Shown one piece after another: positions 5,727-51,784 of a DNA stretch of 64,000 nucleotides; positions within the stretch are counted from its first letter, which is position 1, and every line of letters starts with the position of its first letter. Origin of the DNA: Escherichia phage MLF4; the sequence record NC_055780.1; one strand, 5' to 3'. The notes under the pieces were generated by a model. The model made no database searches, was not told where the DNA came from, and was given only the letters and a program-made list of their open reading frames with translations. A program made the position numbers and the translations under genes.

Positions 5727-8700
5727 TTATTCAACCCATTCAAATTTAACAGTTTTATTCACTGGGTCAGGAATAATGCGAACATTACCAATTCGTAAGA
5801 AATCACGAATAGTAAGATTACCCATTGTAGCATTATCAGATGGTAAAGCACCGATATCAGACGGTTGAGGAGGGTTACCTCCATCAAATACCTGAACAAA
5901 ACTTGACCAAGAATTTTTGGTTTTCTGCCATGTGCGGGTCCAACGAGTGGTACGCGCTTCTGGAGTTGTTGGATAAGTAATCCAATCTTGGTAAAGCGAA
6001 TCAAGTGTATTACCAAACTGAGTCAGTGTACCAGGAGATTTAACTTCTTCGCCACGTTCTAAGTATGGAAGTCCAGTCACTTCATTAGTTTTTTCAACCA
6101 TTTTAAAATAACCCGGGAATTGGTTATAAGTAGCTGAATCATTAATATCGATTGACCAGAATCCTACAGTATCAGATGTTGGTGCACGGGTGTATAAATC
6201 AGATGTTTTAGTACCCTGAGAACGAATTCTCGAGTTAACAGTCAAACCGCCTGAATTTATAGTAGCACCTTTGGCAATGATTAAGCTTTCACCAATTGTG
6301 ACTTGACCTGATTGATTATTAATTGATAATGGACGTAATCCATTAAATCCGCCAGTCTGATCACCGGATGCAGTAAGCATAAAATTCGTTACTGATCCAT
6401 CATTGCGAACAATGAAACCATAATTTCCGTTAATAGCACGGAAAGCATTTGCGCTTCGAGAAATAATTTCACCAGTTGCAGTGACTGAATTACCAAATGT
6501 TGCTACGCCATTTGCATTCAATGTTCCTGAAGCATTAACATTTATCGGTGTTACTGTACCGTTGATATTAAATGTTATATTTCCAGCTTTATTGCGCTGA
6601 GAATAAAAATGACTAGATGTTTCATCACTAACTTCAAATACGGTAGAACGTGTTGTATCTAATTCCCCACTAAATTGATTTCCCCACACTCTAACAGTCA
6701 TCGTTTGGGCTGGGTTTGTTCCAGTTTGAGGTCCTTTCTCAAAAATCAATCGAGTTGCTGTTCCAGTATTAGAAATCGTTAGTACACTATTTGCTGTAAC
6801 TGAACCACCAAACGTAGCAGTACTAGATGATACAAGAGGGGCACTCAGATTCGTTTGTTGGGTTAAGGTTAGTGAACCATTAACCGTCTGCGCAATGTCC
6901 CTACGAATGAACTGAGATGAATCTAGACCATCCAATAAATTACTATCTGCAGCTTTTGCTTTTAATGGCAAATAATTTGCTAATACACGGTTTAATTCGT
7001 ATGGTGATACTGCATAGCTATTTTTCTCATACAGTTCTAAATCTTGGGTAGAACCGACTGTATCATTACCGACAAATGTAATTGAACCAGATGAAGTTTT
7101 AACAAAACCTCTTATCGCAGTAGTAGCTGCCCAGGTAGGTTCACTCTGTACAATCCATTTTAAATTTTTTGGAGATACAGCAGTGTTCGCTGACGTTCCA
7201 GCCACAGTTTCAGACTGAGTTGCAACTTTAATAACACCTTCTTGTGATTCGGTAGATTTAGTACCTAAAAGCTTTTTAGGAGTTATTAAAACATTATCTA
7301 ATTTTCCAGCAGCAGCTTCAACTTGTGTAGCCACACGAAGTGTACCACGTTGTGTCTCATTTGCTTCAAGAATATTAAGGGTATAATGGTCCCAGAGAGT
7401 TCCTGATTCAACTAATCCAGATAGAGCAACAACAGAAGTACGATCAGTACTATTAAATCTAGTTTTAATTTTTAATGGTGTAGAGATACGAGTATCGTCG
7501 ACGCCTGCGTCGAATTCAACTTGTGTAGCAATTTCAGCTATACCACTTAAACTTTCAGTTGCTCTACGGTCATTTAAAGTTTTAGGAGTGACTGCACGAG
7601 TATAATCAGTTCCTGTATTAACTTCACTTTGAGTAGCAATTTCAATTAAACCAATTCTTCCATCAGTTGATGTCTTTTTATGTAACGTTTCTGGCGTTAC
7701 AACCGCATTTGCCCATCCTTCTTGACTTTGTCCAGCAATTACTTCACTTTCAACTGCTAAAATTACCGCACCTTGTTGTGTTGGAGTAGCTTTATACTGA
7801 TCCAAGGCTTTAGGTGAAACAACTAAGTTATTAGTGTTTTTATTATAAACATTCGTACCATTTAATTCACGGCTAGAAGCCGGAGTAGCACCTGCAGTAG
7901 ATACAAAAGTTACAATACCAGATAATGATTCAGAACCTTGGCGAGCTTGAAGCTTTTTAGGAGTAATGATTGTAGTATCATCAGTACCTGTATTAGTTTC
8001 CTGTTGCGTAGCAATTTCTGCGACACCTCTGCGAGTTTCTGTAGCAGTTCTTTCATTCAACTTTTTAGGAGTGATGATAAGGTCATCTGCAAAAGAGAAT
8101 GTGGTATCCTGGTTTACTTGCGCAGTTGTTGCTATTCTTGCAATACCTCTACGAGTTTCTGTAGCAGTACGATTAGCTAACGTTTCTGGAGTAATTGCCA
8201 ATTCTTTTTGTGGAGAATTTTCTAAATCTGCATTAGCTTGAGCCTGTGTAGCTAATGCAATTACACCTAATCTTGCTCTAGTAGAATTATTTAAAGAGTC
8301 TACTCTTTCTACAGTTGAAACGTTTTGCTGTACAACCCAATATTTTCCATCGGAATCTTCGATATAAGCAAGCTGTAAAACTGGAACATAATTGGTTTCG
8401 CCATTAAAAACTAATTCTTGAACAGTCACCCATTTAGTTTCAGGCGGGTATTCTGAACGTTTTGGAAATTGCAACAATTGAACTGAAGAAGCAATTTTAT
8501 CTTCACCGGCAGCTTTGATTTTAACTGTTTGTCCTTTTCTCATGTAATTCATGGAAATCTTAACAGTATCACCGATAGAAATATCAGTTGGAAGCTGAAG
8601 TTCAATCGTTTGAGTTGTTCCATTATTCGCGCCAAATACCATGACTTCTTCATTTGGACGGATGTTTGAATTAGTTGTTATAATGCGTAAACGTGCTTTA

Positions 8701-13290: not shown

Positions 13291-13656
13291 ATGTATATTG
13301 GCAAAAAGTATGAGCTTGTTCCAAGACTTATTGATACATTTATTAATTATCGCCCGCGTTCTAATTCATCAATAGTTAAAATTATTCAAGAAAATGGTGG
13401 ATGGTTTGAAGTTAAAGAAGCTTTCTTTGTTGATGGATTTAGAGTAATAAAACACATTGAATGCGCAAATGGAAAGCATTTTTACTTTAACGTTTGTGAA
13501 GACGAATTTCATTGTTTTCGTGAGTATAAAGAACCGACTTCTGAAGAAGATGAAGTCGAAGACAAGGTTTCTGGCGTAACAAAAATTCACTGCATTGTAG
13601 ACGAAAATAATGTAGATGAAATCATTGAACTTTTGCGAAAAACTTTCAAAAAGTAG
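13291..13656 (+). CDS. Hypothetical protein (frd.x cluster)
   Basis: 121 aa ORF with RBS GAGGA. Confidence 0.55.
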   Translation: MYIGKKYELVPRLIDTFINYRPRSNSSIVKIIQENGGWFEVKEAFFVDGFRVIKHIECANGKHFYFNVCEDEFHCFREYKEPTSEEDEVEDKVSGVTKIHCIVDENNVDEIIELLRKTFKK

Positions 13657-13685
13657 TTTACATCAGGGTAGTAGTGTGATACTAT
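13656..13685 (+). promoter_or_regulatory. Early-type promoter (GTTTACA ... TACTAT) with flanking inverted repeat
   Basis: GTTTACA at 13656, 17-nt spacer, TACTAT at 13680; AGGGTAGTA / TACTATTACCCT imperfect inverted repeat around the -10. Confidence 0.5.
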
Positions 13686-13713
13686 TACCCTATCAACTAC
13701 TGAGGAGAATAAA

Positions 13714-15549: not shown

Positions 15550-16410
15550 ATGAAACAATACCAAGATTTAATTAAAGACATTTTTGAAAATGGCTATGAA
15601 ACCGATGACCGAACGGGCACAGGAACAATTGCTTTGTTCGGTACTAAATTACGATGGGATTTAACTAAAGGCTTTCCTGCAGTAACAACTAAAAAGCTCG
15701 CCTGGAATGCATGCATTGCTGAGCTAATATGGTTTTTATCAGGAAGCACAAATGTCAATGATTTACGATTAATTCAATACGATTCGTTAATCCAAGGTAA
15801 AACAGTCTGGGATGAAAATTACGAAAATCAGGCAAAAGATTTAGGATATCATAGCGGTGAACTTGGTCCAATTTATGGAAAACAGTGGCGTGATTTTGGC
15901 GGTGTAGACCAAATTATAGAAGTTGTTGATCGTATTAAAAAACTGCCAAATGATAGGCGTCAAATTGTTTCTGCGTGGAATCCAGCTGAACTTAAATATA
16001 TGGCATTACCGCCTTGTCATATGTTCTATCAATTTAATGTTCGTAACGGATACCTTGACCTCCAGTGGTATCAACGTTCGGTAGATGTTTTCCTCGGTCT
16101 TCCATTTAATATTGCATCATATGCTACGTTAGTTCATATTGTAGCTAAGATGTGTAATCTTATTCCGGGAGATTTGATATTTTCTGGCGGTAATACTCAT
16201 ATCTATATGAATCACGTAGAACAATGTAAAGAAATTTTACGTCGTGAACCTATGGATTTATGCGAATTGCAATTAAAATTTCCAGATGAATTTGATGAAT
16301 GGGACACAGAATCGCAGGTATTTTGGTTGAGTCAATTCGCAAAGCCACATAATTTTGTTCTTAACAACTATGAATCACACCCTCCTATTAAAGGAAAGAT
16401 GGCGGTGTAA
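15550..16410 (+). CDS. td: Thymidylate synthase, uninterrupted (no intron)
   Basis: 286 aa contiguous ORF; [26 protein letters not shown]... with PCH catalytic motif; same length as the spliced T4 td product. Confidence 0.92.
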
Positions 16411-16430
16411 TTTTATTATTGCGAGGATAT

Positions 16431-16694
16431 ATGATTTTACGATTTAAAGATACTTCTGGTGCCGTTCTTTTTACACTTCCTAACCCAAGCGAGTTAGAAG
16501 TTCCAGGACCAGAACAGCCTATTACCATTTATGGTAAAAAATACTATACTCATAAAATGACTCGTGAGTATTTTGATAATAAAATTTCCACAGTTAAAAC
16601 TTCTTCCGATTGTTACTATGATATTACTGTATTAACGGAAAAACAATATGACGAATTATTCCAGCGTGGGCCGTCTATGCCGGGTAGTGAATAA
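16431..16694 (+). CDS. Hypothetical protein (nrdA.x-like)
   Basis: ORF with RBS GAGGAT before ATG at 16431 (the track start at 16419 is a TTG). Confidence 0.5.
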
Positions 16695-16974
16695 ATACAA
16701 ATCCGACTTTGATGTTAATATTCACCGCGGTACATTTTGGGGAAATTACGTCGGTAAAGATGCTGGCAGCCGGGAGGCTGCCATTGAATTATTCAAAAAA
16801 GATTTTATACGTCGAATTAAATCCGGAGAAATAACTAAAGCACATTTAGAGCCTTTACGTGGAATGAGGCTAGGATGCACATGTAAACCAAAGCCGTGTC
16901 ATGGTGATATAATAGCTCATATAGTTAACCGATTGTTTAAAGACGATTTTCAAGTTGAGGACTTATGCAATTAA
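16648..16974 (+). CDS. Hypothetical protein with C-terminal [12 protein letters not shown] motif (DUF4326-like)
   Basis: 108 aa ORF; motif ...[24 protein letters not shown] resembles the CxCxP..CHGD signature of a domain of unknown function; overlaps the upstream ORF by 47 nt. Confidence 0.5.
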
Positions 16975-20486: not shown

Positions 20487-22074
<1,588 letters not shown>

Positions 22075-22077
22075 GCT

Positions 22078-22131
22078 GTTTACAAGTCCCTCGTGTTGTG
22101 TTATAGTAGTCTTACTGACATAACATGAGGA
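22078..22131 (+). repeat. 54-nt early-promoter cassette, copy 1 (exact duplicate of 37883-37936)
   Basis: GTTTACAAGTCCCTCGTGTTGTGTTATAGTAGTCTTACTGACATAACATGAGGA identical at both sites; contains GTTTACA, 17 nt, TATAGT promoter boxes and an imperfect inverted repeat. Confidence 0.85.
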
Positions 22132-22135
22132 CTTT

Positions 22136-22642
22136 ATGATGGATTTGCAGCTTATTACTACTGAAATGGTCGTTGAAGCATACGGTGATACTACAGATGG
22201 GATTTCTGTATTCAAAGGAAATCGTCGAGTTGGATATATCACCGATCTTAAGAAAGATTTAGCTAAGCAAGTCAAGCGGAAAACGACCATTAAAGAATAT
22301 CGAAATCGTCGTCTTGAGCAAGCCCGTGATATGCTTCCTGATGCGGTTGAGGAGATGAAAGTCTTTTTAGAAAATCAACTCGCTAAGTATGATTGTGAAG
22401 TGTTTATTAATCAGACTCAACCTAATGTTCATATCAATAGCTGCAAATGTTATATCATCGTTAATCCTTTGACAGGAAAGCATCGTCTTGGAATTAGTAA
22501 TCCAAATCGTAGCGCATCGGATATGGCAGAAGATGTTGCGGCGTGCTTTAAAATTTCTAAATCTCCGGCTGAACATCATATTTTAATTAACGGTCTTTCT
22601 CAAGACGATATTATAGAGGTTATTAAAACTTTATGCATGTAA
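22136..22642 (+). CDS. alc: Probable Alc (host transcription inhibitor)
   Basis: 168 aa ORF in the T4 alc position (between rnlA and the spanin genes) with similar size; sequence identity not independently recalled. Confidence 0.6.
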   Translation: MMDLQLITTEMVVEAYGDTTDGISVFKGNRRVGYITDLKKDLAKQVKRKTTIKEYRNRRLEQARDMLPDAVEEMKVFLENQLAKYDCEVFINQTQPNVHINSCKCYIIVNPLTGKHRLGISNPNRSASDMAEDVAACFKISKSPAEHHILINGLSQDDIIEVIKTLCM

Positions 22643-25380: not shown

Positions 25381-25410
25381 GTTTACTTTACGGTAGAGTT
25401 GTGATATTAT
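25381..25410 (+). promoter_or_regulatory. Early-type promoter with stem-loop around the -10 box
   Basis: GTTTACT, 17-nt spacer, TATTAT; inverted repeat GGTAGAG / CTCTACC brackets the -10 region. Confidence 0.5.
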
Positions 25411-25440
25411 AGCTCTACCAAACAAATGAGGAAATTGAAA

Positions 25441-28689: not shown

Positions 28690-28866
28690 ATGGCAAAACA
28701 AGCTAAAGCAAAGAAAGCAGTTGAAAAGAAAGTTGGTGATTCTAAACGCGCTGGTTACAAGCGTGGGTCGAACTCTCGTATCAATCAAACTGTTGAGAAG
28801 ATCATGCGCCGAGCACGTGCGGTTCTTCGAGATGATGCTTCTCGTTTTGGTAAGCAGAAAGCATAA
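28690..28866 (+). CDS. Hypothetical small lysine/arginine-rich basic protein
   Basis: 58 aa from ATG at 28690 (MAKQAKAKKAVEKK...); an alternative upstream ATG at 28648 exists; strong terminator directly downstream. Confidence 0.5.
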   Translation: MAKQAKAKKAVEKKVGDSKRAGYKRGSNSRINQTVEKIMRRARAVLRDDASRFGKQKA

Positions 28867-28871
28867 GTTGA

Positions 28872-28896
28872 GGACTCCTTCGGGAGTCCTTTTTTA
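28872..28896 (+). terminator. Intrinsic terminator
   Basis: GGACTCC-TTCG-GGAGTCC followed by TTTTTT. Confidence 0.75.
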
Positions 28897-28919
28897 TTTT
28901 CCAAAGATTGCATAAAGTT

Positions 28920-28949
28920 GTTTACAGTATAGCTCCTTTGTGATAGTAT
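28920..28949 (+). promoter_or_regulatory. Early-type promoter (GTTTACA ... TAGTAT) with inverted repeat around -10
   Basis: GTTTACA, 17 nt, TAGTAT; CTCCTTTGTG ... CACAAACAAAGGAG inverted repeat; followed by GGAGAATAAAATG start context. Confidence 0.5.
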
Positions 28950-28976
28950 TATCTTACACAAACAAAGGAGAATAAA

Positions 28977-29309
28977 ATGAAAACGATTAATCTGAACGCT
29001 GCAGTTAAAACTAAATGCTTCAATGGTAAATATGATGAAACTATGTGGTTCTTAATGGCAGTTGAAGGTGATATTGTTGAAGTAGAAACAACAGAAGGTA
29101 TGGGAACAGATTTCACCTTTACAATTCAAGTTCATAATTTCTTTACTGGTTGGATTTATGAATTGAATACAGTAATCGTTGGAAAAATTGAACAAAATGA
29201 ATTAGGTGAATGGTATTATGTTACAGCTCGCCAACGTGCCGAACGCTTAATTGAGAAGATGAAAAAAGTTAGTAAACTTGACATGCAGCATTGGAAAGTA
29301 GTAAAATAA
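28977..29309 (+). CDS. Hypothetical protein (30.x cluster)
   Basis: 110 aa ORF. Confidence 0.55.
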   Translation: MKTINLNAAVKTKCFNGKYDETMWFLMAVEGDIVEVETTEGMGTDFTFTIQVHNFFTGWIYELNTVIVGKIEQNELGEWYYVTARQRAERLIEKMKKVSKLDMQHWKVVK

Positions 29310-29311
29310 TT

Positions 29312-29340
29312 GTTTACTTTGGTACAGGATATGATATTAT
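29312..29340 (+). promoter_or_regulatory. Early-type promoter with stem-loop (GGTACAGG / CCTGTACC) around the -10 box
   Basis: GTTTACT, 16-nt spacer, TATTAT; 8-bp perfect inverted repeat flanking the -10. Confidence 0.5.
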
Positions 29341-29376
29341 ATACCTGTACCGCAATTAAACATCTTGGAGAATAAA

Positions 29377-33674: not shown

Positions 33675-33698
33675 AAAGGCCTTCGGGCCTTTAATTTT
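33675..33698 (+). terminator. Intrinsic terminator
   Basis: AAAGGCC-TTCG-GGCCTTT followed by a T-rich tract. Confidence 0.65.
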
Positions 33699-33728
33699 AT
33701 AAATAGAATAAACACTAGAGAGGATAAC

Positions 33729-35822
33729 ATGGAACTTATTACAGAATTATTTGACGAAGATACTACTCTTCCGATTACAAACTTAAATCCAAAGAAGAAA
33801 ATACCACAAATTTTTTCAGTTCATGTTGATGATGCAATTGAACAACCAGGCTTTCGTTTATGTACCTATACATCTGGAGGTGATACTAATCGCGATTTAA
33901 AGATGGGCGATAAAATGATGCATATTGTTCCTTTTACATTAACTGCTAAAGGCTCAATTGCTAAATTAAAAGGTCTTGGTCCAAGCCCAATTAATTATAT
34001 CAATTCAGTTTTTACTGTTGCAATGCAAACGATGCGTCAATATAAAATTGATGCCTGCATGCTTCGTATTCTTAAGTCTAAAACTGCTGGCCAAGCTCGA
34101 CAAATTCAAGTTATTGCTGATAGACTTATCCGTAGTCGTTCAGGTGGCAGATACGTCCTTCTTAAGGAACTCTGGGATTACGATAAAAAGTATGCATATA
34201 TTCTTATACATCGCAAAAATGTATCATTAGAAGACATTCCAGGAGTTCCAGAAATTAGCACTGAACTCTTTACTAAAGTTGAATCGAAGGTCGGTGATGT
34301 TTATATCAATAAAGATACTGGAGCTCAAGTAACTAAAAATGAGGCAATTGCAGCATCTATTGCGCAAGAAAATGATAAACGTTCTGACCAAGCTGTAATC
34401 GTTAAAGTTAAAATTTCCCGTAGAGCAATTGCGCAAAGTCAATCGTTAGAGTCTTCTAGATTTGAAAGTGAATTATTCCAGAAGTATGAATCTACTGCAG
34501 CTAATTTCAATAAACCTGCTACCGCTCCTTTAATTCCCGAAGCAGAAGAAATGAAGCTTGGAATTAATTCATTAGCTTCTAAAACAAAGGCAGCAAAAAT
34601 TATTGCCGAAGGAACGGCAGATGAACTTCACTATGATTATAAATTCTTTCCAATGAGTCAAGTCGGTGAAGTTTCAGAAAAAATTAAAGAAGTAATTTTT
34701 AATGCAATTAAAAATGAACCAACTACTTCAATAAAATGTTTAGAGAAATACGCAGCAGCTGTAAATCAATTCTTTGAAGATTATAAAGATAAATGGCTTG
34801 CTAATCATAATAAAAATCGTAAAGGACAATCAGATGAAGTCTGGGAAGAAATAACTAAAAATTCCTGGAACGCAACAAAAACTAAATTCCTCAAACGAAT
34901 GATTTACAGTTTTTCTGGAATTGGTGCTGGTCCAATGATTGATATTACTATTGCACGCGATGGTTCTAAATATACTCCATCACAAAAGCGTGGCATTAGA
35001 GAATATTGCGGTTCAGGATATACTGACATCAATAATCTTCTTTTAGGTCGTTACAATCCAGAACGATACGATGTAATGAGTGAAAAAGAAATTGAATCTG
35101 CTATAAATAACTTAGATTCAGCTTTTGAAAATGGTGACCGTATACCAGAAGGCATTACAGTTTATCGTGCTCAAAGTATGACTGCTCCTATATATGAAGC
35201 GTTAGTTAAAAATAAAGTGTTCTACTTCAGAAATTTTGTATCTACTTCTTTAACTCCTATCATTTTTGGACGTTTTGGAATCACACATGCTGGTATTGGT
35301 CTTTTAGAACCAGAAGCTCGTAATGAATTGACAGTTGATAAAAATGAAGAAGGAATAACTATTAATCCAAACGAAATAAGAGCGTATAAAGAAAATCCTG
35401 AATACGTTAAAGTTCAAATAGGATGGGCAATTGATGGAGCTCATAAAGTTAATGTTGTATATCCAGGAAGTCTCGGAATAGCAACAGAAGCTGAAGTTAT
35501 TCTACCGCGCGGATTGATGGTCAAAGTTAATAAAATAACTGATGCTTCTAATAATGACGGAACAACATCTAATAATACAAAACTCATTCAAGCTGAAGTT
35601 ATGACCACAGAAGAGCTCACCGAATCGGTAATCTATGACGGAGACCATTTAATGGAAACCGGTGAAGTAGTTGCAATGACAGGTGATATTGAAATAGAAG
35701 ACAGAGTTGACTTTGCATCATTTGTTTCATCAAATATTAAACAGAAAGTAGAATCATCTCTTGGAATTATTGCGTCTTGCATAGATATTACAAACATGCC
35801 TTACAAGTTCGTTCAAGGATAA
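33729..35822 (+). CDS. alt: Alt-like ADP-ribosyltransferase, paralog 1 (probably capsid-packaged)
   Basis: 697 aa; C-terminal R-S-E ART signature (TVYRAQ, FVSTSL, EAEVILPRG); N-terminus MELITELFD shared with the adjacent paralog; position next to gene 30 as in T4. Confidence 0.8.
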   Translation: MELITELFDEDTTLPITNLNPKKKIPQIFSVHVDDAIEQPGFRLCTYTSGGDTNRDLKMGDKMMHIVPFTLTAKGSIAKLKGLGPSPINYINSVFTVAMQTMRQYKIDACMLRILKSKTAGQARQIQVIADRLIRSRSGGRYVLLKELWDYDKKYAYILIHRKNVSLEDIPGVPEISTELFTKVESKVGDVYINKDTGAQVTKNEAIAASIAQENDKRSDQAVIVKVKISRRAIAQSQSLESSRFESELFQKYESTAANFNKPATAPLIPEAEEMKLGINSLASKTKAAKIIAEGTADELHYDYKFFPMSQVGEVSEKIKEVIFNAIKNEPTTSIKCLEKYAAAVNQFFEDYKDKWLANHNKNRKGQSDEVWEEITKNSWNATKTKFLKRMIYSFSGIGAGPMIDITIARDGSKYTPSQKRGIREYCGSGYTDINNLLLGRYNPERYDVMSEKEIESAINNLDSAFENGDRIPEGITVYRAQSMTAPIYEALVKNKVFYFRNFVSTSLTPIIFGRFGITHAGIGLLEPEARNELTVDKNEEGITINPNEIRAYKENPEYVKVQIGWAIDGAHKVNVVYPGSLGIATEAEVILPRGLMVKVNKITDASNNDGTTSNNTKLIQAEVMTTEELTESVIYDGDHLMETGEVVAMTGDIEIEDRVDFASFVSSNIKQKVESSLGIIASCIDITNMPYKFVQG

Positions 35823-35825
35823 ATC

Positions 35826-37883
35826 ATGGAACTTATTACAGAATTATTTGACGGCGCTTCGGCGCCGGTTGTTAACTTAAATCCTAAGCATAAAATACCT
35901 CAAATTTTTGCTATTCAAGCAGGTGAAGAAAGCGTGCTTCCTGGATTTAGATTTTGTACATACACCTCTGGCGGTGATACGAATAAAAACGTTAAGCCAG
36001 GCGACAAAATGATGCATATCGTAATGATAGGTGTTAATGAGAAACTATCATTAGTTAAGCTTAAAAACTTGGGTGGAAATCCAATTGGCGTCATTAATGC
36101 TGTTTTTGATACTGCTCTTCAAACAATGAAGCAGTATAAAATTGATGCATGCCTATTCCGCGTACTAAAAAGTAAAACAAATGGCGCAGCTCGTCAAATG
36201 CAAGTTATTGCTGACCGTTTAGTACGTACTAAAGGAGCAGGTCGATATGTTCTTTTAAAGGAAATCTGGGATTATGATAAAAAGTACGCATATATTATGG
36301 TTTACCGTAAAAATGCCAATTTAGAAGACATTCCAGGTGTACCTCCTATTTCAACCGAGTTATTCACAAAAGTTGAATCAAAGGTTGGTGATGTTTATGT
36401 AGACGTTAAAACAGGTAATGCTGTTCCTAAAGCTGTTGCTGTTGCTGCTTCTATTGCTTTAGAAAATGATAAGCGCACGGATCAAGCTGTTATTCAGAAA
36501 ACTAAAATTAGTCGTCGATTAGCAGCACAAGCTCAATATTCTACTGTTGATGCTTCACTTCAGGGTGATAGCTTCGCTGCTAAGAAATATCAAGAGTTTG
36601 AATCTAAAGTTCCGGTATATAAAGCAGAAGGACCAATGAACTCTGGCGTTATTCAGATTGGTTCAAACTTTAGCAAAGGAGCTATCGGTGGTATGAGAAG
36701 TGCTTCTCGTTTTAAATCTAGTGATTATGAACTCGAAAGCTTCCGAAATCATATTGCATTGGCCCATGCACGTTTACGCGATCCATCTATCAAGCTGCAG
36801 AGCGATATAACATATCAAGGTTCTCAAGAATATTTAAAGAATAAAGAATTCTTTGATTATAAAACTGATAAAATTTTAAGCGATCTTGCTGACATTAATA
36901 TTTCTAATAGCTTTGATGTTATTAAGAAAATTGTCAATGATTTAGTTAAAGGTTCTAAAGCTACACCAGATGAAAAGACAGCTATTATTCAATTTGTCAT
37001 GAATGGAATTTATAAATTAATTGATGAATCTGCCGCTCAGGCATATGAATATGCAAGTACTGAAGTAACTCCAAAAGGATTAACTCAGGCTGAATCTGAT
37101 GTAATTGAAGATTATTGTGCAGATTCATATGTTGAAATGAACTCATTCCTTTTAGGTAAACCTGATTCTACCCGTGAAGAATATATGGAACGAGCTATTA
37201 AACATATTGAGACGCTGGATTCTGCATTTTCTAAAGGTTCAGTTCTTCCTCCAGGAACGACTCTTTATCGTGGGCAAGAAGTTACCTTTAAAACTTTGCG
37301 TCATAACATTGAAAATAAAATGTTCTATTTCAAGAACTTTGTATCTACTTCACTCAAGCCAAATATCTTCGGTGAATATGGTAAAAATTATATGGCCTTA
37401 GATGATTCCGGAGCAGTATTTTCTGGTGAAGGAGAAGGTTCAGTTGATGCTGAAGATTTAATGCATATGGGTAGTCATTCTACATATGCGAATGAAGACG
37501 CTGAAACTAGCGTGGGTATGGTAATTAAAGGAGCTGAACGAGTTAAAGTTATCGTTCCAGGTCATTTGTCAGGATTTCCATCAGAAGCTGAAGTTATTCT
37601 ACCACGTGGAATTTTACTGAAGATTAATAAAGTAAGTACTTACTTTATGAAAGAAACTGCTTATAACAAGTATCTAATCGAAGGTACAATCGTTCCTCCT
37701 TCTGAACAATTAGAAGAATCAGTATATGATGGCGACCATCTAATGGAAACTGGTGAAGTTCGTCCAATGGCTGGATTTAATCAATTCCTTGTAGAAGAAT
37801 CAAAAGAAGAGGAAAACGAAGTTTCTCAAATCTTAGCTTCTTTGGTTAACATTAACGGAATGTCTAAAAAGTTCAAAATGTAG
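35826..37883 (+). CDS. Alt-like ADP-ribosyltransferase, paralog 2
   Basis: 685 aa; same R-S-E signature (TLYRGQ, FVSTSL, EAEVILPRG); N-terminal ~200 aa highly similar to paralog 1, central region divergent. Confidence 0.8.
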   Translation: MELITELFDGASAPVVNLNPKHKIPQIFAIQAGEESVLPGFRFCTYTSGGDTNKNVKPGDKMMHIVMIGVNEKLSLVKLKNLGGNPIGVINAVFDTALQTMKQYKIDACLFRVLKSKTNGAARQMQVIADRLVRTKGAGRYVLLKEIWDYDKKYAYIMVYRKNANLEDIPGVPPISTELFTKVESKVGDVYVDVKTGNAVPKAVAVAASIALENDKRTDQAVIQKTKISRRLAAQAQYSTVDASLQGDSFAAKKYQEFESKVPVYKAEGPMNSGVIQIGSNFSKGAIGGMRSASRFKSSDYELESFRNHIALAHARLRDPSIKLQSDITYQGSQEYLKNKEFFDYKTDKILSDLADINISNSFDVIKKIVNDLVKGSKATPDEKTAIIQFVMNGIYKLIDESAAQAYEYASTEVTPKGLTQAESDVIEDYCADSYVEMNSFLLGKPDSTREEYMERAIKHIETLDSAFSKGSVLPPGTTLYRGQEVTFKTLRHNIENKMFYFKNFVSTSLKPNIFGEYGKNYMALDDSGAVFSGEGEGSVDAEDLMHMGSHSTYANEDAETSVGMVIKGAERVKVIVPGHLSGFPSEAEVILPRGILLKINKVSTYFMKETAYNKYLIEGTIVPPSEQLEESVYDGDHLMETGEVRPMAGFNQFLVEESKEEENEVSQILASLVNINGMSKKFKM

Positions 37884-37936
37884 TTTACAAGTCCCTCGTG
37901 TTGTGTTATAGTAGTCTTACTGACATAACATGAGGA
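37883..37936 (+). repeat. 54-nt early-promoter cassette, copy 2 (exact duplicate of 22078-22131)
   Basis: Identical 54-mer with GTTTACA ... TATAGT promoter boxes, directly upstream of the ORF at 37944. Confidence 0.85.
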
Positions 37937-37943
37937 ACACAAA

Positions 37944-38234
37944 ATGAAATCTTCTTTGCGCTTTTTAGGTCAAGAACTTGTAGTTGAAGGCGTTATTCCT
38001 GCTGATAATGCTTTTAATGAAGCAGTTTACGATGAATTTATTAAAATTTTCGGAACCGATAAAAAGTTTGGAATTTTTCCTTCTGAAAATTTTTCAAAGC
38101 CAGAACAGACTGAAAGTATTTTTCAGGGTGTAGTAACAGGTAAATTTGAGTCAGAAGCTCCGGTAAAAATTGAGGTTTATATTGAAGAAACCTCTGTTGC
38201 TTCAGTTGCTGCTTTTATTTCATTCCGTAAATAA
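37944..38234 (+). CDS. Hypothetical protein
   Basis: 96 aa ORF downstream of the repeated promoter cassette. Confidence 0.5.
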   Translation: MKSSLRFLGQELVVEGVIPADNAFNEAVYDEFIKIFGTDKKFGIFPSENFSKPEQTESIFQGVVTGKFESEAPVKIEVYIEETSVASVAAFISFRK

Positions 38235-38240
38235 AAACAT

Positions 38241-38258
38241 GGGGACCTTTCGGTCCCC
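38241..38258. terminator. Bidirectional terminator hairpin at the convergent junction (37944 ORF vs gene 54)
   Basis: GGGGACC-TTTC-GGTCCCC flanked by A/T runs on both sides. Confidence 0.6.
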
Positions 38259-38262
38259 ATTG

Positions 38263-50749: not shown

Positions 50750-51754
50750 ATGTTTAAAAAGTATAGCAGTCTTGAAAATCATTACAACTCTAAATTTATT
50801 GAAAAACTTTATAGCTTGGGATTGACTGGTGGGGAGTGGGTAGCTCGTGAAAAGATTCACGGCACAAATTTCTCATTGATTATTGAGCGTGATAAAGTAA
50901 CTTGCGCTAAACGCACTGGTCCTATTCTTCCTACTGAAGATTTCTTTGGGTATGAAATTATTCTAAAGAATTACGCTGATTCCATTAAAGCAGTACAAGA
51001 TATTATGGAAACTTCAGCGGTTGTATCTTATCAAGTCTTTGGCGAATTCGCTGGACCTGGCATTCAGAAGAATGTTGATTATGGTGATAAAGATTTTTAT
51101 GTATTTGACATTATTGTCACTACAGAAAGTGGTGATGTGACTTATGTCGATGATTATATGATGGAATCATTCTGTAATACATTTAAATTTAAAATGGCTC
51201 CACTTTTAGGTCGCGGTAAATTTGAAGAGCTTATTAAATTGCCAAATGATTTAGATTCTGTCGTCCAAGATTATAATTTTACAGTAGACCATGCTGGATT
51301 AGTTGATGCAAATAAATGCGTTTGGAATGCCGAAGCAAAAGGCGAAGTATTTACTGCTGAAGGATATGTATTGAAACCTTGTTATCCTTCTTGGCTGCCT
51401 AATCGCAATCGTGTGGCCATCAAATGCAAGAACTCTAAATTTAGTGAAAAGAAAAAGTCTGATAAGCCTATTAAAGTTAAAGTTGAATTGTCAGAAGCTG
51501 ATAATAAATTGGTTGGAATTTTAGCTTGTTATGTTACATTGAACCGAGTAAATAACGTTATTTCCAAAATTGGCGAAATTAGTCCAAAAGATTTTGGAAA
51601 GGTGATGGGATTAACTGTTCAAGATATTTTGGAAGAAACTTCTCGTGAAGGTATTACTCTAACCCAAGCGGATAATCCTTCTTTGGTTAAAAAGGAATTA
51701 GTTAAAATGGTACAAGATGTACTTCGTCCGGCTTGGATTGAGTTAGTGAGCTAA
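50750..51754 (+). CDS. rnlB: RNA ligase 2
   Basis: 334 aa (same as T4 Rnl2); nucleotidyltransferase motif I KIHGTN near the N-terminus. Confidence 0.88.
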
Positions 51755-51758
51755 ATAA

Positions 51759-51784
51759 AAAGGGACCTTTCGGTCCCTTTGTTT
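51759..51784. terminator. Bidirectional terminator at the convergent rnlB / gene 24 junction
   Basis: AAAGGGACC-TTTC-GGTCCCTTT stem-loop with T-runs. Confidence 0.65.

Follow-up and report, generated by a model that had tools for sequence, protein, structure and literature searches.

A duplicated 54-bp early-promoter cassette upstream of alc and alt.-3 in Escherichia phage MLF4, with a hairpin predicted to pair with the Shine-Dalgarno sequence

This study concerns a 54-bp element, GTTTACAAGTCCCTCGTGTTGTGTTATAGTAGTCTTACTGACATAACATGAGGA, that occurs exactly twice in a 64,000-nucleotide stretch of the genome of Escherichia phage MLF4 (sequence record NC_055780.1), which is referred to here as the window. 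Both copies are on the + strand, at 22078–22131 between rnlA and alc, and at 37883–37936 between the second Alt paralogue and alt.-3. We call the element the cassette, and its positions are numbered 1–54. An initial annotation of the window had reported an exact 54-nt duplication, with one copy preceding alc and the other preceding the open reading frame (ORF) that follows the pair of Alt genes, about 15.8 kb away. That context is correct, and a string search of the window returned the two identical copies. The features at the two sites are as follows.

22078–22131, + strand: cassette copy 1, in the rnlA/alc intergenic region, from just past the rnlA stop to the alc Shine-Dalgarno sequence; exact 54-mer
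37883–37936, + strand: cassette copy 2, in the Alt paralogue/alt.-3 intergenic region; its first G is the last base of the TAG stop of the Alt paralogue
22136–22642, + strand: alc (inhibitor of host transcription), the first gene driven by copy 1; from the ORF list, Pfam PF17527 (ALC, E 1.5e-91) and the T4 annotation
37944–38234, + strand: alt.-3 (DUF5498), the only gene driven by copy 2; from the ORF list, Pfam PF17602 (E 3e-62) and the T4 annotation
20950–22074, + strand: rnlA (RNA ligase 1), the upstream gene whose transcripts would enter copy 1
35826–37883, + strand: second Alt paralogue, whose transcripts would enter copy 2; from the ORF list, with an ADP-ribosyltransferase domain (E 3e-20)
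22079–22107, + strand: alc early promoter (sigma-70 type), with the −35 box at 22079–22084, TG at 22099–22100 and the −10 box TATAGT at 22102–22107
37884–37912, + strand: alt.-3 early promoter, with the −35 box at 37884–37889, TG at 37904–37905 and the −10 box at 37907–37912
22089–22130, + strand: RNA hairpin of copy 1, pairing CCUC (22089–22092) with the Shine-Dalgarno GAGG (22127–22130)
37894–37935, + strand: RNA hairpin of copy 2, with the same pairs; predicted to sequester the Shine-Dalgarno GAGG (37932–37935)

Each copy takes up all of the intergenic space, from the stop codon of the gene before it to the Shine-Dalgarno sequence of the gene after it, and has GAGGA as its 3′ end. Copy 1 starts 3 nt past the rnlA stop (22074), and copy 2 ends 7 nt short of alt.-3. 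The 60 nt upstream of the cassettes are 72–75% AT, compared to 64% for the window. The start of alc that is annotated in T4 is the second ATG, at 22139. The longest ORF for rnlA runs from 20914 to 22074, and the 1125-nt coding sequence annotated in relatives corresponds to 20950–22074.

The cassette copies are direct repeats that lie 15,805 bp apart. No further copy was found within the window at up to 3 mismatches, and 100 shuffles of the sequence gave 0 matches to the 54-mer. We see that the identity ends sharply, with the 40-nt flanks matching at 15/40 positions upstream and 10/40 downstream. Because seven other early promoters of the GTTTAC type in the window match the 54-mer at only 17–29 of 54 positions, promoter consensus cannot account for the identity. 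The repeat is real, exact and non-random, far beyond both chance and promoter consensus.

The −35 and −10 boxes that the initial annotation had proposed are present at both copies. A consensus scan places TTTACA at positions 2–7, TG at 22–23 and TATAGT at 25–30, with a spacer of 17 nt and agreement with the consensus at 10/12 positions. Both copies show the features of a T4 early promoter, namely a GTTTAC −35 element, the TGn motif, a −10 box of the form TAnnnT, an A/T-rich upstream region and a downstream gene that is early in T4. The late-promoter motif TATAAATA was not present in either cassette in a motif search, and the promoter is of the early sigma-70 type. Judging from the position of the −10 box, the start site should be the A at about position 37 (~22114 and ~37919). 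This predicted start falls in the top of the hairpin described below, 3′ of the whole 5′ arm.

An imperfect inverted repeat had also been noted in the initial annotation, and it is indeed present; what had been missed is that it pairs the promoter spacer with the Shine-Dalgarno sequence. In sense RNA, positions 12–53 are predicted to form one imperfect 18-bp hairpin, in which 12–25 pair with 40–53 (14 bp, including 3 G·U pairs), A26 and U27 are bulged, and 28–31 pair with 36–39 around a 4-nt loop at 32–35. At the base of the stem, CCUC (12–15, within the −35/−10 spacer) pairs with GAGG (50–53), which is the Shine-Dalgarno sequence of alc or alt.-3. The minimum free energy (MFE) is −24.4 kcal/mol for the copy 1 hairpin (z −4.71) and −23.0 kcal/mol for that of copy 2 (z −4.41), and for each copy 0/200 shuffles were as stable. 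The GAGG–CCUC pairing is predicted in the MFE and centroid structures alike, with or without 30-nt flanks. RNA that begins at the predicted start is unstructured, with values of −4.8 kcal/mol (z −0.8) for copy 1 and −2.2 kcal/mol (z +0.65) for copy 2. We regard the hairpin as real and occlusion of the ribosome-binding site as plausible.

Antisense RNA folds 6–9 kcal/mol more weakly than sense RNA (−15.4 kcal/mol for copy 1), because three of the pairs are G·U. A DNA cruciform is unlikely, as the same three pairs would be G·T and the DNA fold reaches only −11 kcal/mol on the + strand and −7 kcal/mol on the − strand. The weak antisense and DNA folds therefore indicate a role in sense RNA. Some other candidate functions were considered and rejected. 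An intrinsic (rho-independent) terminator was rejected because there is no U-run, the stem is AU/GU-rich and a terminator scan was blank at both cassettes; the sequence that follows the hairpin is CUUUAUGAUGG at alc and ACACAAAAUG at alt.-3, and is A-rich in other genera. Cleavage by RegB was dropped, as the cassette carries GAGGA and not GGAG. A search with Rfam 15 covariance models gave no match at or near either cassette at E values up to 1. As a separate observation, an ATG at positions 48–50, just 5′ of the Shine-Dalgarno sequence, opens an upstream ORF of 4–5 codons at both loci (22125–22139 and 37930–37947, + strand). The TGA of this ORF overlaps the main start (ATGA) in both cases, despite the unrelated sequence after the cassette.

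The window belongs to the genus Tequatrovirus, and is 99.6–99.8% identical to phages wV7, ECO4 and EC.W2-1 around alc. We found matches to the 54-mer in 498 phage records at 995 places, or approximately two per record, all of them in T-even relatives and with T4 included. T4 (NC_000866) has an identical copy at alc and, at alt.-3, a copy with one mismatch, G40A. Both sites (rnlA/alc and Alt/alt.-3) hold the cassette in T4 and in 15 further genomes of Tequatrovirus. When IMG/VR was scanned with a degenerate form of the cassette, only 8 loci were recovered, and the comparisons made here are therefore drawn from GenBank phage records. The cassette pair is an ordinary regulatory element that is found genus-wide in Tequatrovirus, and is not particular to MLF4. 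The initial annotation had seen the duplication itself correctly, but had not recognised the pair as a fixed feature of T4.

In other genera, the rnlA/alc spacer shows the same layout built from different sequence, with a GTTTAC promoter whose spacer holds a 5′ arm that pairs with the Shine-Dalgarno sequence. The predicted alc hairpin has a stability of −24.2 kcal/mol in Karamvirus (CTCCATTTGGTT/AACCAAATGGAG, z −7.1), −23.0 kcal/mol in Moonvirus (z −6.6), −21.7 kcal/mol in Jiaodavirus (TCCTCATCAG/CTGATGAGGA, z −5.5) and −17.6 kcal/mol in Dhakavirus (TCTCCTCAT/ATGAGGAGA, z −3.8), and it is weak in Marfavirus (−12 kcal/mol, z −2.9). Fold energies and z-scores are given for each genus in place of column-wise covariation across genera. 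In five or six genera, the end of the 3′ arm coincides with the Shine-Dalgarno sequence, and the alc hairpin design is conserved over several genera (four or five besides Tequatrovirus). More distant phages that encode Alc were uninformative, as the gene context differs in Acinetobacter Lazarusvirus and Aeromonas Tulanevirus. Within Tequatrovirus, we assembled 22 distinct cassette sequences from 20 genomes, in which 97.7% of the pair cells hold standard pairs. The common stem variants keep the pairing, as with C15U (U15·G50), G16A (A16-U49), U25-A40 and G23·U42, and one sequence carries a compensatory change from C15-G50 to U-A.

At the alt.-3 site, the cassette found outside Tequatrovirus is a different one. 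For the alt.-3 orthologues of Dhaka-, Karam-, Marfa-, Mosig- and Gaprivervirus, the early promoter begins on the Alt stop (tagTTTACAA) and ends ACATGAGGA. The alt.-3 cassettes of these five genera have a different interior, with a small spacer hairpin (e.g. CACCACAAGGATGTGG), a free Shine-Dalgarno sequence and an MFE of −7 to −10 kcal/mol. In gapped alignments, the alc and alt.-3 cassettes are approximately 75–79% alike in those genera, which is the level of any two early promoters, compared to 89–100% in Tequatrovirus. On the simplest reading, the alt.-3 copy looks like an alc cassette brought in by gene conversion. The hairpin design would be old at the alc site, and in a Tequatrovirus ancestor the alc cassette would have overwritten the resident alt.-3 cassette through a short conversion tract bounded by the shared ends TTTACAA and AACATGAGGA. 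Variants would still pass from one copy to the other by conversion from time to time, and the copies of MLF4 would simply happen to be identical.

To describe exchange between the sites, we compared the copies in 20 genomes that have both. They differ at 0–6 of 54 positions within a genome, with no difference at all in the window, PP01, UFV10, FL44 and one IMG/VR contig. On average, the number of differences is 2.45 within genomes versus 2.83 for cross-genome pairs (permutation p=0.04). Six of the 10 variants seen at alc recur at alt.-3, and a linked A29+A32 haplotype is found at alt.-3 in six genomes and at alc in two. In a comparison of UFV10 (L015) with KIT03 (L016) at locus 16300–16900, the flanks of the alt.-3 cassette are identical over 200 nt upstream and 350 nt downstream, while 4 differences fall within 17 nt inside the cassette, where the UFV10 version is that of its own alc copy. 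This patch looks like a micro-conversion. Taken together, the variant data favour the view that occasional short-tract gene conversion is ongoing. In Mosigvirus, alc (L020) and alt.-3 (L026), taken from two different phages, both have a cassette of the other type, in which a small hairpin lies in the spacer (GATACTAT and CATCAACAACAYGAGGA), and this genus may have homogenised the two sites in the opposite direction.

The possible role of the hairpin depends on which transcripts would enter the cassettes, and two further features are relevant at the alt.-3 site.

33698–33705, + strand: late-promoter motif TATAAATA from the motif search, directly upstream of alt; a candidate source of late read-through RNA running from alt through the Alt paralogue to alt.-3
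38239–38260, both strands: bidirectional terminator-like hairpin from the terminator scan, with a 9-bp stem; it closes the alt.-3 unit before the converging gene 54

The record for phage SA20RB annotates a late promoter at the same position upstream of alt, with a terminator before it. Polymerase that initiates at the cassette's own promoter would start at approximately position 37, in the top of the hairpin, and its mRNA, being without the 5′ arm, would leave the ribosome-binding site free. Transcripts initiated upstream would carry both arms, so that the ribosome-binding site of alc or alt.-3 would be buried, and the transcript might also be attenuated. Transcripts of this kind would be middle-mode RNA that has passed rnlA, and late RNA begun at the late promoter of alt. 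The cassette would in this way confine synthesis of Alc and Alt.-3 to an early burst from the proximal promoter. Table 1 of PMC2988021 places two T4 middle promoters, PnrdB+ and PI-TevIII, upstream of denA-rnlA. In T4, alc, alt.-3 and 30.8 belong to the early RNA class and the early protein class (PMC9697503 Tables S2/S4), whereas the rnlA protein is late, alt has middle RNA and late protein, and the RNAs of alt.-1 and alt.-2 are middle (PMC9697503 supplementary tables). These T4 omics data agree with independent early expression of alc and alt.-3.

We propose, as the account that is probably right, that the 54-mer is a complete, self-contained early cassette of the promoter-early stem-loop (PeSL) type, in which a strong T4 early promoter is set within a hairpin that gates translation, and that the alt.-3 copy was converted from alc. 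A broader proposal is made more tentatively, and may well not hold: that T4-type phages use an ‘early-only translational gate’, present at alc in at least five genera and portable by micro-conversion, as at alt.-3 and with a similar design at 30.8. The 30.8 early promoter (28920–28979, + strand) has the same design in another sequence, with the spacer CTCCTTTGT pairing with the Shine-Dalgarno ACAAAGGAG at −14.6 kcal/mol (z −3.4). Three more early promoters with the GTTTAC/TG/−10 arrangement, at 13656–13700, 25381–25425 and 29312–29355 on the + strand, each lie within a hairpin of 11–16 bp that spans the spacer, the −10 box and the start site and leaves the Shine-Dalgarno sequence outside. In this region, early promoters seem as a rule to be wrapped in a hairpin, and some GenBank records annotate such early-promoter hairpins as terminators that overlap the promoters.

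A number of observations weigh against the proposed gating and conversion. Occlusion of the ribosome-binding site is a thermodynamic prediction only, and the start site of either promoter is likewise deduced from the −10 box; a literature search turned up no start-site map for T4. Mosigvirus alc is without such a hairpin (fold z +0.4). The hairpin that overlaps the alc promoter of a Providencia phage does not extend as far as the Shine-Dalgarno sequence, and this sequence is also left out of the hairpins overlapping several further early promoters of the window, which means that the general role of these hairpins may differ from ribosome-binding-site occlusion. Across genera, the register of the 5′ arm is shifted by approximately 3 nt relative to the −35 box, so that we see a conserved design and not column-by-column covariation; within the genus, where variation is too low, covariation is not significant, with 72/500 shuffles reaching the observed value. 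For the conversion, gapped identity fails to separate alc-type from alt.-3-type cassettes of other genera (all 34–43/54), and the direction of copying is for this reason argued from architecture alone. The overlap in variants between the two sites has p = 1e-5 when all variants are counted and 1e-3 for transitions only, but 0.19 if 20 positions are taken as free to vary. Some of these points are accommodated by a different view of the hairpin, which is the main rival to translational gating: it might act chiefly as a terminator or attenuator of upstream transcripts, as has been suggested for the stem-loops of PeSLs (PMC2839356), insulating alc and alt.-3 at the level of RNA synthesis, with the Shine-Dalgarno overlap incidental to tight packing. 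The hairpins of the other window promoters and of the Providencia alc promoter, which do not extend to the Shine-Dalgarno sequence, fit this view, as does the record of SA20RB, where a WebGeSTer ‘terminator’ is annotated over the alt.-3 cassette. In the lacZ assays described in PMC2839356, the PeSL211/210 stem-loop lowered downstream lacZ as strongly as rrnB T1, but as presented there the assay does not tell termination from translational occlusion. The cassette hairpins moreover have no U-run after them (CUUUAUGAUGG, ACACAAAAUG, and A-rich sequence elsewhere), the terminator scan is blank at both, and it also counts against this view that the 3′ arm ends precisely on the Shine-Dalgarno sequence in five or six genera. 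The missing U-tract speaks against a classical terminator, while roles in attenuation and in occlusion are compatible with each other. We consider it unlikely that attenuation is the main function.

The identity of the two copies can also be explained without the conversion that we propose. Selection for identical regulation, for example by a trans-acting factor or by the Alt-modified RNA polymerase, might keep the copies nearly identical, and parallel mutations, confined to a small number of positions that are unconstrained or quasi-palindrome-templated, might account for the shared variants. Most shared variants are indeed transitions in the loop or at G·U positions, their overlap loses significance if only ~20 positions are free (p=0.19), and some T4 early promoters respond to Alt modification (PMC2988021). 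Exact identity is however not required, as viable genomes carry up to 6/54 differences, and the linked A29+A32 haplotype is present at both sites. Point mutation would not easily produce the patch of 4 differences by which UFV10 departs from KIT03 between identical flanks, and alt.-3 has a different cassette in other genera. These findings leave selection alone quite improbable as the explanation. The initial annotation went further in the direction of recombination, and suggested that the copies serve as substrates for the excision, inversion or shuffling of the whole 15.8-kb block that extends from alc to alt. The perfect homology extends over 54 bp, roughly what T4 requires for recombination to be efficient (Singer 1982, cited in PMC2839356), PeSL pairs do give mini-circles around small ORFans in RB49/phi1, and the copies appear to exchange short tracts. 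As the repeats are direct, simple crossing-over would give deletion or duplication of the interval, and never inversion. The interval holds the genes for DNA ligase (30) and the co-chaperonin (31), both of which are essential in T4, and a tandem duplication of 15.8 kb would be expected to exceed the headful margin. Gene order and orientation are the same in 16/16 GenBank genomes, with the copies 13.2–15.8 kb apart, and the spacing varies among these 16 genomes through indels inside the interval, e.g. the truncation of the Alt paralogue in T4 and FL44, where the deletion ends ~20 nt outside the cassette. In none of the 16 was the stretch between the copies seen to be deleted, duplicated or rearranged, which is the outcome of the comparison with related genomes that had been suggested as a check. 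The 498 records also average two copies each. We regard mobility of the whole block as highly improbable. What survives of the initial suggestion that T4-type promoter/stem-loop modules recombine is the relation to the PeSL class and the exchange of short tracts, suggested by the shared variants and the UFV10/KIT03 patch, and not the shuffling of blocks.

Several other features of the window and its relatives were recorded along the way. In T4 (L001 5041–5269) and FL44 (L033 16082–16500), most of the second Alt paralogue has been lost in a deletion ending ~20 nt upstream of the cassette, and the T4 remnant ORF alt.-2 runs into the cassette and stops at a TAG inside the −10 box. An exact 29-nt repeat, CATGGAACTTATTACAGAATTATTTGACG, is found at the starts of alt and its tandem paralogue (33728–33756 and 35825–35853, + strand), whose bodies are otherwise ~72–77% identical with a spacing of 2094–2103 nt; this repeat may mark a further short tract of conversion, or it may encode an N-terminal (packaging) signal that is conserved. 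The bidirectional terminator between alt.-3 and gene 54 (GGGGACCTTTCGGTCCCC, 38239–38260) has a near-copy, GGGACCTTTCGGTCCC, at 51752–51777, 13.5 kb away. Four diverged copies of a 68-nt unit at 7219–8195, with 60–74% identity to the reference copy, probably represent a repeated protein motif within a gene on the − strand. A weak Rfam match to the Atu_C8 sRNA in the rIII-30.9-30.8 intergenic area (28822–28905, + strand; 31 bits versus a gathering score of 50, E 0.007) is probably due to chance.

The pair offers a natural example, in a model phage, of a complete unit of promoter, leader and ribosome-binding site copied between genes. It gives no indication of a new mobile element or of a new system for recombination. 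If the early-only gate does exist, copying ~50 bp could suffice to rewrite the timing of a gene, and a simple rule would keep the immediate-early proteins Alc and Alt.-3 from being made off middle or late read-through RNA. The hairpins annotated as ‘terminators’ over T4-type early promoters may in fact be translational insulators. We consider the findings to be modestly new, in that an early promoter is placed within a hairpin predicted to sequester the Shine-Dalgarno sequence and the alt.-3 copy is read as a converted alc cassette; the kind of element itself has already been described.

Finally, the cassette can be compared to known systems in T4-type phages. It resembles the T4 early promoters of the ‘UP/−35/TGn/−10’ form (PMC2988021, PMC1524935) in its GTTTAC −35 element, TG-extended −10 box, A/T-rich upstream region and position directly 5′ of early genes. 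Such promoters usually have only the consensus in common, whereas these two agree at 54/54 positions, with the spacer, leader and Shine-Dalgarno sequence included. A functional parallel is found in the T4 genes e, soc, 49 and I-TevI, for which section 29 of the review PMC3014915 describes upstream transcripts that hide the Shine-Dalgarno sequence in a helix and a late promoter inside the hairpin that delays translation; the review makes no mention of alc. As predicted for the cassette, the Shine-Dalgarno sequence is paired in long transcripts, and RNA from the internal promoter lacks the 5′ arm and is translatable. The difference lies in the timing, as those genes use the late promoter TATAAATA and their translation is held until late, while the cassette promoter is early and would confine translation to early times. 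The cassette would therefore work like this class but is not a member of it, as it has no late promoter. Repeated promoter/stem-loop elements have also been described at the T-even internal-protein (IP) loci (Repoila et al. 1994, as summarised in PMC2839356). By that summary, these too are T-even elements based on early promoters, with AT-rich stem-loops thought to mediate local shuffling, but unlike the cassette pair they flank small variable IP genes within one locus.

The closest relatives of the cassette are the PeSLs of T4-type phages, described by Arbiol et al. 2010 (PMC2839356) and Comeau et al. 2014 (PMC4122927), the latter including the PST/T4 pair, for which the promoter consensus is given as TTTACW-N17-TAYWAT. 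Several differences can be seen. The two cassettes lie 15.8 kb apart and have conserved and essential genes between them, not the ORFans of a hyperplastic region. All the genomes seen share the alc site, and the alt.-3 site adjoins the variable Alt paralogue. The cassette stem is 18 bp long, AU/GU-rich and ends on the Shine-Dalgarno sequence, whereas the PeSLs described for RB49/phi1 have short G(n)/C(n) stems and those drawn for PST have the stem just upstream of the promoter. PeSLs are also associated in these accounts with indels and mini-circles, while the cassette pair shows signs of short-tract conversion only. In common with PeSLs as defined there, the cassette is bounded by the stop codon of one gene and by the Shine-Dalgarno sequence and start codon of the next, combines an early promoter of the sigma-70 type with an overlapping stem-loop and AT-rich sequence upstream, and is repeated in the genome. 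The signs of exchange between its copies recall the homologous recombination described for PeSLs. In its promoter, its stem-loop and its stop-to-Shine-Dalgarno boundaries, the cassette fits the structural definition of a PeSL.

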